A stretch of 64,000 nucleotides of DNA from Microthyrium microscopicum. Taxonomy: Eukaryota. The notes under the pieces were generated by a model. That model was given only the letters and a program-made list of their open reading frames with translations, was not told the origin of the DNA and did not search any database. Of this stretch, positions 2,798 through 12,282 are shown piece after piece. Every line of letters starts with the position of its first letter. Within the stretch, counting starts at the first letter, position 1. Position numbers and translations under genes: made by a program. The DNA lies in assembly GCA_010405405.1 (NCBI GenBank), contig MU004230.1:4017119-4081118 (forward strand), written 5' to 3'.

Positions 2798-3581
2798 GTG
2801 TGGGTTGCATTGTGCGAAAGCTTCACTTGAACGCTATGTTCAATTCCCTTTTTGCTCTCTGTGCAAGAAAGATTCTTTTTTCTTATAAGTAATTACTTCA
2901 ATATGTTAGCGGCTGCTAGGATGTTAAGCCCTTTTTTTAACCTCCTTGTAGACCAATTCTTGAAAGCTGGGCGGTCTTGAAGCAGCGATTCACTTGGTAA
3001 ATCTAGTAAATTTCGATGCATTTGATTGGTGCGCACAAACATTAAATGCCTGCTGTGCAAGCAAGGCTGAGATGAACAAGGCTGATGTTCAACTACACCC
3101 CATCGGCTACAAACCGCACGCAAAACCCGTAGTCAACAGAGAGAGCAGATAGCACTGTATATAGGGTAGCAGGTCCATGTCAAGCTACCGAAAGCATAAA
3201 AAGACACATTTGGAAGCTCTAGGCACTTAAGGCTCACATCACGTTATAATGAATTGGTCAACAGTAACGTGTAACTGAGGAACTGTGTCGACGTGCAGAG
3301 CGACGCGCCCAAAATTCAACTTCCCGCCTCAAAATGACCCAAGCACTAAAAACAAACAGGCTTCGGTGCCTCATCTCAAGGTGTCTCGAGGGCGAGGTGT
3401 TAGTTCCTAAGGTGGCTTCTTTACCTTCGAATTTTTGTTTAAGGTTACTTTAAACTCCCCACCTTTTACATAGCTCTGTCCCTCTCGTATCGCCATCACC
3501 ATCATCACAATCACCATCAGCTTCGCGCTTTACGACTTTCAAAGAGCTTTCTCTCACCCCTCCTGCTTTCAAGTTGTCATC

Positions 3582-5020
3582 ATGGCCGAGTCAAATGTTG
3601 ATGGCGAACTGTCAACACATGTTATCACCACGGTGACTACTGAGTTTGTCGACCACGTCATTTCAAATCTTGAAAAAGTCATCCAGAGTGGCAATCTAGC
3701 AGCTGAGGAGTCCAACCAAGTTGAGCGTAATGCTGCGACCGAGGCTTATCTACGCGACAGACTCCGGCCTTCGTTGGAAAGCATCATGGAACAGCCAGAC
3801 TTTAAAGAGGAAGCGCGAATGGCGCAAGGAATTAAACAATACAAGTCCTGGATCAAGAGCATGGCTCAGGTTTTCGAAGGTAAGCTTCCTGGCATAAGCA
3901 CAGATCACTCAAGATAGTGACAAAGGTGGAAGTTCTGCAATCGTGACATGTTGCTAATATATTCCAGATGTTGATTCCATGGTCGGTAAACACCTCCTTG
4001 CCCGAAAGCCAATTGAGGATGCGCGTATCAAGCGCATCCAGGAAATTGAGGATGCGCATACCAAGCGCATTCAGGAACTCGAGGATACACATACTAAGCG
4101 CATTGAGGAGCTCGTACAAGAGCCAGCAACATTCCCTGAATTCATGCAAAATCAGGAAAAGCGCAAGGATCTCAAGCGCAAGCGAGTCGAATCTCCAGAC
4201 CTTGAATCTCCAAAGCCAGGTAAATTTTCCCTTAATTGTTCACAACATCCGATGAGACCAAAATACCGTGCCTACCATCGAATGGCTACCATAGACTGCC
4301 CTTCTGATCAAGTGCTATGGTCCCCATCGCACTTGATATCGCTTTTTTGATAAAATTCTTTGGTAATTTCAAGCTAACAAAATATAGGTAATATACAATG
4401 TGTGCTCTACGCTTCGTCTCCAGCAAGCTAACAATATTCGAAGACCAGATTGACTACATCCTTGTCCGTCGTTTAGACCAAGTAACTGCCTCGAATTACT
4501 TCTCAGAGAACATTTTGGTCTGTGAAACCTTCGACTTGGAGAAAAGATTGACGGATTCTCTCAGCCAAGGCCGAACACTTTATCTTATTATCTACACAAA
4601 CGATGAACGGGGTACCGACTTCCAAGGTTACGTAAGTTCCGCGTCCGGTTCGCTCCAAGGTATAGCTGAAATTGACATTTTTGATGCTTCTAGGGCCGCC
4701 TGACCCGTCTTCCGGGACTGATCTCACCAACCAATCCAGCTCCACATTGGCGCACAGTGCTAAAGCCCTGGGATGAGTCATTCATTCGACCATTTCTTGT
4801 GGAATGGGTAGCAAAATTTCCTAGAGGGGTCTATCGTCCTTTTGACACTGCTCTACTGAAATCCATGGCACGTAACTTGAAACAAGATTTCAACAAAATC
4901 AGCTCCTTTCAGCAAATTCGAAGACATGATGGTGCGAATGTGGTGAAACTGTTGGATGAGGCAGCGGGAATAAAGACAGCAGGTAGAGCCACCAAGAAGA
5001 TGGTCAATGCAACCGGCTAG
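3582..5020 (+). CDS. Coiled-coil protein with a divergent C-terminal YTH-like domain (4 exons)
   Basis: Exons 3582-3879, 3968-4219, 4444-4631, 4694-5020 splice in frame (GT-AG, GCTAAY branch points). Product contains DYILVRR...LEKRLTDSL...LYLIIY...DFQGY|GRLTRLP...PHW...PFLVEWV...FQQIRRHDGANVVKLL, which follows the YTH motif order. Confidence 0.65.
4012..4110 (+). repeat. 3 x 33-bp coding tandem repeat (11-aa hendecad units)
   Basis: IEDARIKRIQE / IEDAHTKRIQE / LEDTHTKRIEE at 4012-4044, 4045-4077, 4078-4110. Confidence 0.85.
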
Positions 5021-6062
5021 TAGCTTGATGGGAACTGAATTCTGGCGAGCGGCGGACAAATTGTAATGGAAGGCGTTGGAAGTAACGAAACGGGTGGTTT
5101 TCAATATCTTTATTCCTGGGGAATAAAGACTTTTTCATGAACAAGAATGATGGAGTTGCTGAGGCCTAGGTTCTCAAAGCTAGAGTACTCTATAATTTTG
5201 AAGCATCCAAACTCAAACTCAGTGTACATAATATTCAAAGTCAAGCTCAATAAACCGCCAAAAGTTTGTAGTCAATGTAACCCTTAGAATAATTCTGTAT
5301 AAGTCCCGAAAAGCTAAGTACTTTAGGTAGGTACTTACCAACCTTAGGTAACTTTTTACAAAGGGCCCAAATCCTCGCAGCCATTAAGTCTAAAAACAGC
5401 AGGCGATGAAGACCTGAAGACGATTTGCTTTTAATCTTCAATACCTTTCCAGTTCAAAGCGCAATGAAAAATTACATAACGTGTATGAAATTCGAGCCCA
5501 GCATGGCTGTTACAGATTTCTCGAGAACAACACTGATCATGAGTTCGTGATCACGCTGGCATATGCTGAACTGGATTGAATCAGACGATAAGAACTGCCT
5601 CCACAGTAATTGCATTAACTTGTTCATAGCTACGTTGAGTCCTCTTTTTGATGTCATTATCCTTGAAACGTCTTAGTATGAGACTAAAGGGTAGGTTCCT
5701 TAACAATCTCAGCAAATGTTTCTAGATATGTACCTAGGCTTGAATGCGTAGCTCTGGCGTCCATAAAACTCCATGGCAGCTATTGAGTGCTGTGTGAAAT
5801 ATAGACTGTGATGGGAGCCACAAGATACGATGGCACACCTTGCTAAACTGAGGTATGGCCCTATGGGAGATTCGGTAGAGTATTCAAGTATTCTAGACGT
5901 CTTAAAGCATGCTATGATAGCCATTGAATGCGATGGGAACCAACAGATGCGCTGGGGAGTTTAATTTGTTCTCATGATATGGTGGTATTGTTCAGGTACG
6001 AAGCATTTCTATTTTACCTACAGCTTCAGCATCAACAACCCGGCTTTGATACGGCAAATTCC

Positions 6063-7486
6063 TTAGCGTTTTGCGATATTACACAACGCATTCACGATAA
6101 ATAGGCCTTCATCCTTTGAAATCACTTGTGATCTTCTCACATCTTCGACCTTTCTTCTTATTGCTCGTTCAAAGTCCACATATGACTTCTCGTTTCTGTT
6201 CCAGGTCAACTGCTTTCGTCCTGTCCAATCGACTCCGAGAACTTTGCAATTTTTGAGACCATTTCGCTCAGCTAAGTCCAGTGGTGTCCAGCTTGCTATT
6301 TCTGGCATACTGTCAAGAAGTGTCTGTCAATATGTTAGCGGACTGATTTGACTTAGATTCTGCTTGATGGCAATTTACTTACACAGGCATGAAACTCGAC
6401 TCCCTTCGAATTCGATGAGTAGAGAATAAGCCAGACTTTTTGATCGTTGTCGAAGATGGATCGAAGAGTTCCCTCGTCGGAGGACGGCAAGGCCAATGCA
6501 TGCTCGCGGAAATAACCTTCTGGCTGTATCGAAAATCGTCGCCGGAGCAAGACGTAGCGAAACTCATCTGTTAGGAAGTTAGTGTATAAGAAGATCAGCT
6601 ATCAGATCTCAGTAATTACCTGTCTTTTGAGAAGATGACCGCTCGCGCTCAAGAAATCTTGCCCGGTCGAAAGGTGAGCGAGACCGATGGCCATTGCTAC
6701 CCGAAGCAGGAGACCGTGATCGGCGACGGCTGTGAGAAGACTCTTCCGCACGACGAAGTTGATGATGGACTATAGCTGAACTATGCTCTGGCTTGCTAGC
6801 ATTTTCGTCCAACCATTGCGTCAGGCGATATCCCACACCCAGAAGAATCTCTTGAAAAGGCAGGAATTCCAAAGGAGAAGCAATGGGCGGAGATGAAGAT
6901 TTGCCTAGCTCAGTGATCAGCTCAGGCTTCGTCCAGAAATCGACACTTCGGGTAGCTTTCCAGGTAATCTTGAAGGGCTGACTATGTTTCCACTTCAGCT
7001 CTGGATGCCAGGAAGGAAGAGGGTTCTGCTGAGACGAGTATTGCGGAGCACTCTCCACGCGTGCCTTAAATATAATTAGATTTGAACATGCGTCTTGCGG
7101 AATGAAAATGAACTTACATAGCCTGGAAAGAACCCTCCGCCGTGACACAACTGGAAGAATATGATGTAAACTTGGCTATGCTCCCTAAAGGCTCGTCTGA
7201 GAATTCTCTCATCCTTGGTCATCAGAACGTAAATTCCGTCGCTCATTGACTTTTTCATGAAAGACGGGTGAATTGGCTTGTGGAGAAAGTAAGCAGTAGA
7301 AGAGCTTGTTGTTGGCTCACCAAGCGGAGGCAGCGTGGGTTTTGATTCGGCGGGATCGTCTAGGCTCAACGCCTCCACTTGAGTAGCTGGGGGATCGATA
7401 TCCATTTCGCTATCATTGGATATTGGCGTTTTGACTCTATCAGCCATCTGTAGAGGAACTATTGGCTTCGGCGAAAGGGCTGACAT
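6063..7486 (-). CDS. Protein with two tandem divergent YTH-like domains separated by an RS-rich linker (4 exons)
   Basis: Exons 7486-7118, 7064-6620, 6567-6383, 6323-6063 splice in frame. Domain 1: AYFLHKP...KSMSDGIY...DERILRRAF...VYIIF...FPGY|ARVES...PSW...PFKITW...FQEILLGVGYRL. Linker SRRRSRSP...HRSRSP. Domain 2: RYVLLRR...DEGTLRSIF...VWLILY...FHAC|TLLDS...GVDW...SQVISKDEGLFI. Confidence 0.75.
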
Positions 7487-7811
7487 TGAAACGATGTGAG
7501 CGGTATCTTGGTGGATGGGAGGTGTGGGCGAAGGGGTGTAAAAGAGGTGCTGGGTGTTAGAGAATCAGAAGCGAGCTGGCACTGACAATGTGAAGGTAAA
7601 CCTCTCAGCCTTGTCCTCAGCCTTGTCTGCAGGGATCTAAACGCGCGTCAATTTTACAATTTAGCGTAGGGTCGCTTAGAAAATATGCAAAACATAAAAA
7701 AAATACTGGTACGAAATCGAAAATGTTGCAATGAAACTTCAAAACTAGAACCGACGTGTCGCCATATTGATGCTCTCCGATATGCAACACTAATCCGTCG
7801 TTCTCCTCAAA

Positions 7812-9026
7812 ATGGCCTCCGAAAACTCACCACCAGCCCTCCGCTTTGTCGGCCATCGCCATCTCGCCAACCGTCTCGTCCTCTCCACCCTCACCGGCCG
7901 GCCCATCCACGTCTCCAAAATACGCACCTCCTCCGTCTCCGCACCCGGTCTCGCGCCCCACGAAGTCTCCCTCCTCCGCCTCCTCGACGCCATCACCAAC
8001 GGCTCACGCATCGAGTTCAACGCCTCTGGTACCGCCTTCCTCTACAAACCCGGCCTCATCGCTGGCTCTGCGCCTGGCCTTGGCGCAGACGCATATGGAG
8101 TCATTCGCCATGAGATACCGGCGGCGTGTGAGCGAGGCCTAAGCTATTTTCTGATTCCGCTGTGTCTGCTGGCGCCGTTTGCGAAGAATAAAGTCAGTGT
8201 GCTTTTTGCTGGACCGGGTGTGATTACGAGCGCGACGGAGTTGGGGGACGTCAGTGTTGACACGGTGCGGACGGCAATTTTGCCATATTACACGAATTTT
8301 GGCATTTCGACGGATCGCGTGGAGATTCGGACTGTGCAGAGATCTTGTCCGGGGCCGGGGGGAAAGGGTGGCGCGGGAGAAGTTCAGGTTGTGTTTGCGC
8401 AGCAGGTGCGGTTACCGAAGACGATACATTTGCTGAATCGTGGCCGGGTGAAGAATATCAGGGGCGTGGCATATGCCGTTGGTGTGAGTGGGAGTAACAA
8501 TGCTAGGATGATTGAAGCTGCGAGAGGAGTGCTCAATAAACTGGTTCCTGATACGCGGATCTTCTCGGAAAACTCGTCAGCTGGATTCATCAAAGAGGTT
8601 ACTGGAGGCAGCGTTGGCAAGAGAAAGATGGGAATTGGATTTGGGCTAAGTCTTGTTGCCGAGACAAGTACTGGCAATCGCTACTCAGCGGACATGGTTT
8701 CTCCGACTGACGGAGGTGTTGCTCCTGAAGAGATTGGAAAGCAGGCTGCTCTACAGCTACTTGAAGTGATATCTCAAGGTGGTGTTGTAGGACAGACGGC
8801 AGCCCCGACGGTATTGATGCTCATGGCCATGGGACCAGAAGACGCCAGTCGAGTAGCACTGGGAAAAGATGTACTAGGTACGGAAGATATGGTTCAAATG
8901 GCCAGAGACTTTCGAGAGTTCGGGCTCAACGACTGGGGTCTTAGAGATCTTGAGGGTGAGGAGGTTGAGATTGTTGTTGTCATCAAAGGAAGCGGCGTGG
9001 GCAACGTAGGCAGAAAAATTGCCTGA
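7812..9026 (+). CDS. RCL1: RNA 3'-terminal phosphate cyclase-like 18S rRNA biogenesis protein
   Basis: Intronless 404-aa ORF with RLVLSTLTGRPI..SKIR, PGL..HEVSLLRLL..ITNGS, G.GGAGEV and terminal GSGVGNVGRKIA, all characteristic of Rcl1. Confidence 0.93.
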   Translation: MASENSPPALRFVGHRHLANRLVLSTLTGRPIHVSKIRTSSVSAPGLAPHEVSLLRLLDAITNGSRIEFNASGTAFLYKPGLIAGSAPGLGADAYGVIRHEIPAACERGLSYFLIPLCLLAPFAKNKVSVLFAGPGVITSATELGDVSVDTVRTAILPYYTNFGISTDRVEIRTVQRSCPGPGGKGGAGEVQVVFAQQVRLPKTIHLLNRGRVKNIRGVAYAVGVSGSNNARMIEAARGVLNKLVPDTRIFSENSSAGFIKEVTGGSVGKRKMGIGFGLSLVAETSTGNRYSADMVSPTDGGVAPEEIGKQAALQLLEVISQGGVVGQTAAPTVLMLMAMGPEDASRVALGKDVLGTEDMVQMARDFREFGLNDWGLRDLEGEEVEIVVVIKGSGVGNVGRKIA

Positions 9027-10682: not shown

Positions 10683-12282
10683 ATGCCACAGCTGACGAGG
10701 GGGAGCCGTACTGCCAGACTTCTTGGGACTGTCGGAGGGAAGCAACATGCCACAGATGCTGATCATGAAGAACCTCTTCCCTCCACTCGCCGGAGTGCGA
10801 GATCAAAGCCGCCAGCCCCGATCAGATTGAACCAAGAAGCAACTGCCCCAAAAGATGCTCCATCAAAAACTCAGCCCAGGAAAATAGATGCAAAAGTTGC
10901 GTCTACTTCTAGCAAAGAGAACTCACCGTCAACCATACCAAAACAACCCGCACCAAAAGGGAATTCCAAGAAGAGGAAGGGCCAGGCAGACACCGAGAAG
11001 GATGCGGAGATCACATCGAAGAGGCAGAAATCTGAAGAGAAAGACGATGAAGCAAGTCGCCCGTTCTCAAGTCAGCACGCGAGTAGTCAACCACGCAAAG
11101 GCGGGCAGCATAAGTACCCAAAGAAACGTCCGACTTTCAACAATATATTCATCGTACCTAAGAAGAAAAACCCAAAGCTTACGTCTTCTCTACAAAGTGC
11201 GAAAGAAGCAGGTATGGAATTGGGACCGTCACCATCTCAACTAGGCTAATGTATTTCACAGGAAACAAAAAGCGAGTGCGACATCTAGCCGATGCAAAGG
11301 TTACGGAAGCTACGAAGCCTAAACCAGCATTTCGAAGACTTGGGGGCGCTCCTGACTCATCACAAGGAGAACCTAGCTCCTCGCTGGGCAGTACAGGCTT
11401 CAACGATTTAGATCTCAGTGGTGTTAAGAGCTCCTCGAGGTCGAGCACGAGCAAGCAAGCCAGTCAAATTCTCCTATCGTCAGGTCCAGGTTCTCACCTG
11501 AGCAATACCGTACCATCCCGTGTCGTAGACCTGTCGGAGACCCCAATCACCGTCGACAGTGATTCGAATATGTCGGATATAGAAGATGACATCGAAGAAA
11601 CCGGTGCCAACAAGCTACCCATCTGCAAACTTTGCGGATCGCTTGTTTCTCAAGACCTCTACGACGAATGGACAGCTCGCTATCCAGTAATGAATTTCCG
11701 GGAACAGCAGAAATTCTGTGACGAACACAAACGTACCCAGGCTGAAAAGGACTGGGTCTCGGAAGGCTACCCAGCAATCGAGTGGGACCAACTACATGCT
11801 CGCCTCAAAAATCACGAGAAAGACATTACCGCAATACTCAGAAATCCCAAAACATCCTTTTTCCGCAGCAAGCTGGAGGAATCTATCAATGCCGGCAAAG
11901 CAAGAAATGTCCTAACTCATGTGACCAAAGATGATGAGGCAGAGACTGCTCACGTCACAGTAGGCTACTATGGAATGAAAGGTTTACAGATGATGTAGGT
12001 GGCTTTCCCTTATTACACACGATACGACAGCTAATCCAGCATAGTACGGCATTCATCATGGAAAATTTCACTGGCAAGCTGAGACGAGTAGCAACAAAGG
12101 ACAGAATCATTGCTGAAAGAGATGTGGCAGGCTATGTGCAGATGGTCCTTGTGCCTGAAATAGCTATGAGACTGATCATGGAAGATATGGATGTAAATGA
12201 AGAGCAGGCACGAGTTATCATGAGAGAGAGTACAAATATTGGTATAGCGCTGAATGACTCTGAGGAGCGCAAAGCGGCCTGA
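10683..12282 (+). CDS. RTC4-like domain protein (disordered K/S-rich N-terminus, CxxC...CxxH motif, C-terminal RTC4-like domain)
   Basis: Exons 10683-11211, 11262-11994, 12045-12282 splice in frame. Motifs CKLC, QQKFCDEH, W..EGYP.IEW, GYYGMKG, YVQMVLVPE.A..LIMEDM, AR.IM.EST.IG. Confidence 0.75.

Follow-up and report, generated by a model that had tools for sequence, protein, structure and literature searches.

Two convergent genes, here called A and B, lie in a 64,000-nucleotide (nt) stretch of the Microthyrium microscopicum genome (assembly GCA_010405405.1, contig MU004230.1, positions 4,017,119 to 4,081,118 of the forward strand; this whole stretch is referred to as the window). They raise the question of whether the divergent domains that they encode belong to the YTH family and, if so, whether these domains still read N6-methyladenosine (m6A). 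A first-pass annotation, made from the letters of the window, had proposed one YTH-like domain in A and two in B, all with a remodelled m6A pocket. Judged by sequence comparison, the three window domains are paralogous YTH domains of the DC type, and we consider it rather probable that A and B, both intact and expressed, belong to a divergent YTH family of the DC type that is restricted to one lineage and in which a natural tandem architecture occurs, and that they probably serve as non-canonical RNA readers.

Family membership, relatives and fold of the domains

The Pfam scan of the window genes was performed on eight single exon pieces, each domain being halved by an intron. Exon 1 of gene B matched the YTH family (PF04146) with E 2.1e-5 and 24.7 bits against a cut-off of 22.1, over profile positions 2-47 of 135. 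When a profile of the three N-terminal halves was compared with the PDB, seven sequences were found at E<=10, and five of them were YTH chains (YTHDC2 four times and AtCPSF30, E 0.15-0.84). The order of motifs that had been claimed for the YTH-like domains was found to be common to all three window domains, which were aligned over approximately 150 residues.

An exhaustive HMMER search with the N-half profile returned two proteins at E<=0.001 among 1,835,955,588, namely P0001 (619 aa, two matched stretches, E 2.6e-11) and P0002 (259 aa, E 4.6e-6). These are the GenBank entries KAF2675413.1 and KAF2675393.1, respectively, both hypothetical proteins of M. microscopicum that UniRef names 'YTH domain-containing protein', and they are most likely paralogues from the window's own genome, encoded on the same contig, rather than orthologues. 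They are not encoded in the 64-kb window, and no further YTH copy was found within it. The first-pass annotation had spoken of a locally expanded, fast-evolving subfamily; the expansion and the high divergence are borne out by these two additional members, most likely on the window's contig, and the expansion is at most putatively local, since both lie outside the window. Pfam recognized YTH in P0001 with E 6.9e-21 and 74.9 bits over two stretches, in its second domain alone with E 7.5e-9 and 35.9 bits, and in P0002 with E 1.4e-11 and 44.7 bits over profile positions 3-133 of 135.

The window domains were joined to each other and to these paralogues by pairwise blastp, the E-values of which refer to a search space of few sequences. 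Gene A aligned with B domain 1 at 28-30% identity over 99-153 aa (E about 2e-8 to 4e-8), with B domain 2 (B residues 268-346) at 29% identity over 80 aa (E about 6e-8) and, over the whole domain, with P0002 at 25% identity over 158 aa (E 8.7e-9). B domain 1 and P0002 shared 43% identity over 159 aa (E 1.9e-39), and gene B was collinear with P0001 across both domains (26% identity over 352 aa, E 3e-29), P0001 differing in an N-terminal extension of 180 aa and in a linker that is not RS-rich, with a single Arg. An N-half profile of A and B domain 2 aligned best with P0001 domain 2 (hhalign E 5.8e-5, probability 66%). Thus A and B domain 2 are linked to Pfam-passing paralogues by both blastp and hhalign.

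A family profile was then compiled from P0001, P0002 and six window pieces. All 18 of its PDB matches at E<=10 were YTH domains (E 1.1e-6 to 3.7e-4), the best being Toxoplasma CPSF4 (1.1e-6), AtCPSF30 (1.3e-6), YTHDC2 (8e-6) and YTHDC1 (2e-5), and no DF-type domain was among the 18. With exon 1 of gene B passing Pfam and the family profile finding only YTH chains in the PDB, the proposal of three divergent YTH domains was upheld. An Atlas search with the half-domain of gene A exon 4 gave only GNAT/FemAB-like bacterial clusters (0.86-0.92), which were treated as noise.

Word-based searches with B exon 1 and A exon 4 (longer proteins) and with P0002 found only the query itself. A metagenome scan with B exon 2 gave two loci, both false, one antisense to an isopropylmalate-dehydrogenase-like open reading frame (ORF) and the other inside a valyl-tRNA-synthetase-like ORF. 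A and B were absent from the results of the protein-collection searches, although the product of the neighbouring Rcl1-like gene, P0003, is in the collection, which suggests that A and B are unannotated in public protein sets or modelled differently there. As known so far, the family comprises at least four genes and six domains, most likely all from a single Dothideomycete genome; this order of fungi is sparsely sequenced.

The YTH fold is a PUA-like open barrel with the order strand-helix-strand-helix-strand-strand-strand. It was examined on AlphaFold models of the paralogues P0001 and P0002, which stand in here for A and B. For the P0002 model, all the matches listed by Foldseek were YTH structures, with 7ng2 as the best (E 1.2e-4). 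A structure search independent of Foldseek ranked YTH domains above other PUA-like folds: they filled the first nine of 37 rows (Z 6.5-4.8), among them YTHDC2 at Z 6.5 (root-mean-square deviation (rmsd) 4.1, 112 aligned) and Mmi1 at Z 6.1-6.2. In the Atlas, 30 of the 30 feature matches of P0002 fell in YTH families, and of its ten structural rows the first eight were YTH clusters, followed by EVE and HNH in rows 9 and 10.

For both domains of the P0001 model, the alignments with YTH structures gave Z 9.2-9.7, with rmsd 3.0-3.8 and 111-131 residues aligned. Residues 180-341 matched 7ng2 (Z 9.7, rmsd 3.6, 131 aligned) and residues 403-536 matched YTHDC1 (Z 9.6, rmsd 3.6, 122 aligned); domain 2 also matched Mmi1 (Z 9.2-9.5; best rmsd 3.4, 117 aligned). 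In this search 118 of 998 chains had Z>=8, and 50 of 50 were YTH among the matches listed. Profile and structure searches, the latter by way of the paralogues, both gave YTH matches, and they show that the domains belong to the YTH family and, as modelled for the paralogues with a low predicted local distance difference test (pLDDT), to its fold. Because each P0001 domain separately aligns with YTH structures, the tandem YTH architecture is real, and it occurs in two genes, B and P0001.

Domain types and pocket residues

In an alignment of the six domains, two types were distinguished. Type 1 comprises B domain 1, P0002 and P0001 domain 1, with mutual identity of 34-46%, and type 2 comprises A, B domain 2 and P0001 domain 2, with mutual identity of 16-23%; B domain 2 shows 16-21% identity to the other five domains. 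Type 1 is followed by type 2 in the two tandem genes (B and P0001), and the other two genes are type-1-only (P0002) and type-2-only (A).

The pocket of YTHDC1 consists of W377, W428 and L439, and the base is hydrogen-bonded by N363, N367 and S378, as described in a passage of PMC6112328. From the first strand to the cage position the alignment to YTHDC1 is free of gaps, and for this reason the YTHDC1 numbering and residue roles can be transferred to the present domains. At the position of W377, HMMER alignments to YTHDC2, CPSF4 and YTHDC1 placed Tyr in all three type 1 domains and Leu in all three type 2 domains. The first cage Trp, which belongs to the GxW motif of m6A-reading YTH domains, is therefore replaced by Leu in A, by Tyr in B domain 1 and by Leu in B domain 2, exactly as had been read from the window sequence. 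The paralogues P0001 and P0002, the nearest relatives and encoded by separate genes, have the same Tyr and Leu states as the window domains.

The position of N367, ten residues before the cage position without gaps, is occupied by T in A, F in B domain 1 and Q in B domain 2, and in the paralogues by F in P0002, V in P0001 domain 1 and T in P0001 domain 2. The Asn that hydrogen-bonds the adenine in m6A-reading YTH domains is thus missing from all six. At the position of W428, the three-way alignment of the window domains, B domain 2 included, has an invariant Trp, which is matched Trp-to-Trp with CPSF4-YTH and YTHDC1. The third cage position falls in a loop of variable length where HMMER introduces gaps and where the models are poor. 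This third residue is L439 in YTHDC1 and Trp or Tyr in the DF and Pho92 types.

In alignments to AtCPSF30 and YTHDC1, the canonical NPxN..RDxQE segment had no counterpart and only its Q-x-I...G part persisted; the HLxNPxN/RDG segment, reported by the first-pass annotation as not recognizable, is accordingly lost. As far as residue identities indicate, 'remodelled' is a fair description of the pocket, and 'destroyed' would go too far for type 1.

Gene structure, transcripts and surroundings of the pair

Both genes had been proposed as intact and arranged tail to tail, and this was confirmed: the spliced frames are open, the introns are GT..AG and the coordinates agree (Table 1). The spliced frame of gene A consists of 354 open codons and a stop, and all of its introns are GT..AG with CTAAC/CTAAT-like branch sites.

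Table 1. Positions in the window of genes A and B, their parts and the adjacent Rcl1-like gene
Feature	Positions	Strand	Details
Gene A	3582..5020	+	4 exons: 3582-3879, 3968-4219, 4444-4631, 4694-5020; 354 aa
33-nt x 3 tandem repeat, gene A exon 2	4011..4114	+	Tandem Repeats Finder: period 33, 2.8-3.0 copies, 85-86% matches
YTH domain of gene A (type 2)	4444..5017	+	Phase-0 intron 4632-4693 directly after FxGY
Gene B	6063..7486	-	4 exons: 7486-7118, 7064-6620, 6567-6383, 6323-6063; 419 aa; open frame
YTH domain 1 of gene B (type 1)	6789..7300	-	Phase-0 intron 7065-7117 after FxGY
RS-rich basic linker of gene B	6624..6788	-	55 aa, between both YTH domains
YTH domain 2 of gene B (type 2), most divergent copy	6066..6567	-	Phase-0 intron 6324-6382, alignment position as in the other two domains
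Rcl1-like protein P0003	7812-9023		Divergent from gene B; 325-bp spacer common to both

The protein of gene A begins with an acidic N-terminal region containing an 11-aa unit three times and a KRK-rich stretch, and it ends with its single type 2 domain. What had been named a coiled coil is the 33-nt repeat, which encodes these three 11-residue units next to the KRK-rich stretch, and it is probably a helical or dimerizing element. The protein of gene B has an acidic Pro-rich N-terminus, the type 1 domain, the linker and the type 2 domain. Its linker was rightly called RS-rich, since it contains 12 R, 14 S and 8 RS/SR dipeptides in 55 aa and has an isoelectric point (pI) of 11.9. All three window domains are basic (pI 8.8-9.4). 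Pfam scans of the A and B exon pieces and of P0001 and P0002 found no zinc finger, helicase or RRM partner domain.

Transcript evidence was taken from contigs of a single public run (X1), the RNA nature of which was guessed, placed on positions 3400-7700, where they matched with zero mismatches. The contigs skip exactly 4632-4693, 6324-6382, 6568-6619 and 7065-7117, all of them GT..AG on the respective gene strand, indicating that they derive from spliced RNA. Four of the six predicted introns were confirmed in this way: intron 3 of gene A and all three of gene B, the latter by one single contig. For these four the junctions of the earlier gene models stand, and those of introns 1 and 2 of gene A rest on prediction.

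Exon 1 of gene A is covered by a contig over 3536-3811, and X1 cover is absent over 3832-4263, a gap that counts neither for nor against the model. The joining of the N-terminal exons to the YTH exons by introns 1 and 2 is accordingly a predicted one. A 168-nt contig over 4361-4528 is unspliced at the predicted acceptor of intron 2 (4443/4444), and translation from an in-frame ATG at 4398 could yield a YTH-only isoform of ~186 aa. The 5' part of gene A may accordingly involve such a short isoform, retention of the intron or another gene upstream. We favour the four-exon model because exon 3 of A has the same alignment boundaries as exon 3 of B, the acceptor of which is RNA-confirmed; an Asp codon split in phase 1 opens both exons, three residues ahead of the conserved Tyr, and both end in phase 0 after the FxG(Y/C) motif. 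Within intron 2 of gene A, a 36-nt stretch (4302-4337) is common to a far deeper X1 contig (bin depth 105) that diverges on both sides, and it is probably a short repeat or a stretch shared by chance. On the side of gene B, a 3933-nt RNA contig spans the gene over 6029-7700 and continues past 7700 into the divergent Rcl1-like gene (ATG at 7812). Since this contig reaches both genes, their 5' transcript ends probably overlap in the spacer between them.

A phase-0 intron interrupts all three window domains at one alignment column, immediately behind FxGY/C, and its common position points to duplication at the DNA level, independent of protein similarity, and on this sequence evidence the pair is shown to have arisen by duplication. 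Gene A resembles the second half of a B-like gene that was copied in inverted orientation and acquired new 5' exons. Repeat-induced point mutation (RIP) was considered as the cause of the divergence in the present sequences and was rejected, because A and B have a normal TpA/ApT index of 0.60, like that of the neighbouring housekeeping genes, and no RIP signature.

The neighbouring genes are ordinary and encode an M28 peptidase, an RTC/Rcl1-like protein, a ribulose-phosphate 3-epimerase, an RTC4-like ORF and an APH-type kinase. The RTC4-like match of the ORF at 11162-11995, two genes from the RTC/Rcl1-like gene, is borderline (E 5.7e-5, with 23.7 bits equal to the cut-off). Approximately 20 kb from the YTH pair there is an AT-rich block (26000-50000) with GC content of 0.16-0.23 per 2-kb bin, against 0.43-0.51 elsewhere, which raises the TpA/ApT of the whole window to 1.19 and looks like a RIP-degraded repeat region.

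Competing readings and known YTH systems

How, then, would A and B act? The replacement of W377 by Tyr or Leu and of N367 by F, V, T or Q, together with the loss of the NPxN/RDG RNA-contact segment, suggests that the pocket no longer reads m6A canonically. The basic domains, the RS-type linker of B and the KRK-rich stretch of A suggest nuclear RNA-binding proteins. By analogy with Mmi1 of Schizosaccharomyces pombe, the domains would bind RNA by sequence or shape, and two YTH units per molecule (B and P0001), or per A dimer held by the repeat helix, would provide avidity for clustered sites.

A number of points weigh against this interpretation. Nuclear localization, dimerization of A and avidity are parts of it that we infer. 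Seven of the eight exon pieces, including all those of A and those of B domain 2, had no Pfam YTH match, and a profile of the three C-terminal halves found two PDB matches at E<=10, neither of them a YTH chain. The exhaustive search used a profile of only 61 positions and the other homologue searches were word-based, so that distant relatives could be missed. The mean pLDDT of the models is low (48.4 for P0002 and 44.0 for P0001), which is due to shallow alignments, and the models are uninformative on pocket geometry. In the pocket itself, the second cage Trp is kept in five of the six domains (B domain 2 being ambiguous in the six-domain alignment), the Tyr at the first cage position of type 1 is still aromatic, and in three of the six domains, namely P0002, B domain 1 and A, a further Trp stands 5-7 residues beyond the second one. 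With the W428 equivalent, the type 1 Tyr and this further Trp present, the domains may retain a working methyl-binding cage.

It is on these residues that continued reading of m6A, or of N6-methyladenine (6mA), could be built: type 1 would offer a variant cage of Tyr, Trp and Trp, type 2 would be an auxiliary or second reader, and B would be bivalent. The conserved W428 equivalent and the aromatic residue at the W377 position in type 1 agree with such a cage, as does the second Trp of P0002 and B domain 1, which stands 5-6 residues past the first, at a distance comparable to that between W and L in YTHDC2. The domains are moreover basic, their fold and FxGxAR motif are DC-like, and PDB entries show that YTHDC1 and YTHDC2 also hold N6mA DNA. 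However, the equivalent of N367 is F/F/V in type 1 and T/Q/T in type 2, and the change of this Asn to Ala in Mmi1 is cited, in a passage of PMC6112328, as one reason for its failure to bind m6A; the first Trp is Leu in type 2, and the NPxN/RDG segment is missing. We regard m6A reading by these domains as doubtful, while taking it seriously as the main rival.

The very low identity among the copies (16-46%), the lack of relatives found outside the presumed source genome and the failure to find A and B in protein collections would also fit decaying or neutrally drifting duplicates with no specific function. That outcome seems improbable to us, because both genes are open across four exons with canonical splice sites and are spliced and transcribed, because all copies, far as they have diverged, retain the fold-core motifs and the second Trp, and because within each domain type the Tyr or Leu state is invariant; moreover, neither A nor B, at TpA/ApT 0.60, has a RIP signature. 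The same gene set, with two genes of type 1 plus type 2 (B and P0001), one of type 1 only (P0002) and one of type 2 only (A), would fit a paired use of the two types, in which A and B would form a dedicated two-protein complex, as the first-pass annotation had suggested, with type 1 pairing with type 2 within B and between proteins. Inverted duplication explains the convergent layout and the common intron positions equally well, however, and the low-confidence P0001 model (predicted template modelling score 0.30) is uninformative on contact between the domains; such a complex also seems improbable to us. We speculate, with hardly more conviction, that the family could be an obligate bivalent reader of type 1 plus type 2 that does not recognize m6A and binds clustered RNA, unmodified or differently modified, in nuclear surveillance or silencing; its units would stand in one chain (B and P0001) or be assembled from P0002 and A dimerized via the repeat helix.

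The reading that we prefer, that of intact, expressed and non-canonical RNA readers, would make the family a natural experiment on the re-purposing of the YTH pocket, with the first Trp and the base-reading Asn changed in two fixed ways, both found in tandem. Gene B and P0001 would likewise be the first natural two-YTH case for bivalent RNA recognition. A full-text search on tandem, dual and double YTH wording found no natural two-YTH protein among the papers listed, consistent with the earlier remark that this architecture is not known from characterized proteins, and P0001, a paralogue of the same architecture, exists in databases under an automatic YTH name. Because of that UniRef name, the family as such is already known to databases.

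Among known systems, the DC-type YTH proteins (YTHDC1, YTHDC2, plant CPSF30-YTH and Toxoplasma CPSF4-YTH) belong to the same Pfam family and fold as the present domains and gave the best sequence and structure matches. Common to both are the gap-free first strand up to the cage, the FxG(Y/F)AR motif and the W428-equivalent Trp. The present family differs from them in the change of W377 to Tyr or Leu and of N367 to F, V, T or Q, in the absence of the NPxN..RDG segment and in the two domains per chain of B and P0001. The fungal PHO92 and YTH1 clades are PF04146 proteins like the present family; no RRM was found here. Fungal YTH proteins were surveyed by Kim et al. 2023 (PMC10826363), who describe three clades that are mostly single-copy and consider only proteins of 300-1000 aa, and their survey may leave out short or sub-threshold members such as the A/B family. 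More generally, such members may escape surveys of fungal m6A readers in which proteins are filtered by length and Pfam score. In the Atlas structure search with P0002, it was a fungal YTH+RRM cluster that had the highest template modelling score by query (0.57).

To our knowledge, Mmi1 is the only well-studied exception among YTH proteins, keeping its cage and yet binding an unmethylated motif. According to passages of two reports, it has a YTH fold without the N367 side chain and does not bind m6A (PMC6112328, PMC4737157), the change from Asn to Ala at N367 being cited as one reason (PMC6112328); it keeps its aromatic cage (PMC4737157) and recognizes an unmethylated hexamer, the DSR motif, via the face opposite the pocket (PMC4737157, PMC6112328). 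Mmi1, one of the top structural matches, resembles the present family in its fold and in the loss of the N367 side chain. It differs in that its cage is kept, whereas the first Trp is replaced here, and identity in the structural alignments is 8-16%; the resemblance would be a functional analogy with similarity at the level of the fold. A section of PMC10605862 describes Mmi1 and Erh1 as acting in a 2:2 complex, in which two YTH domains work together, and describes ERH as absent from Ascomycota except the fission yeasts. Mmi1 therefore gains its bivalency through the Erh1 complex, whereas B and P0001 carry both YTH units in one chain, and the bivalent reader, if it exists, would have built in what Erh1 bridging provides for the Mmi1 dimer, and this in a fungal lineage without ERH.

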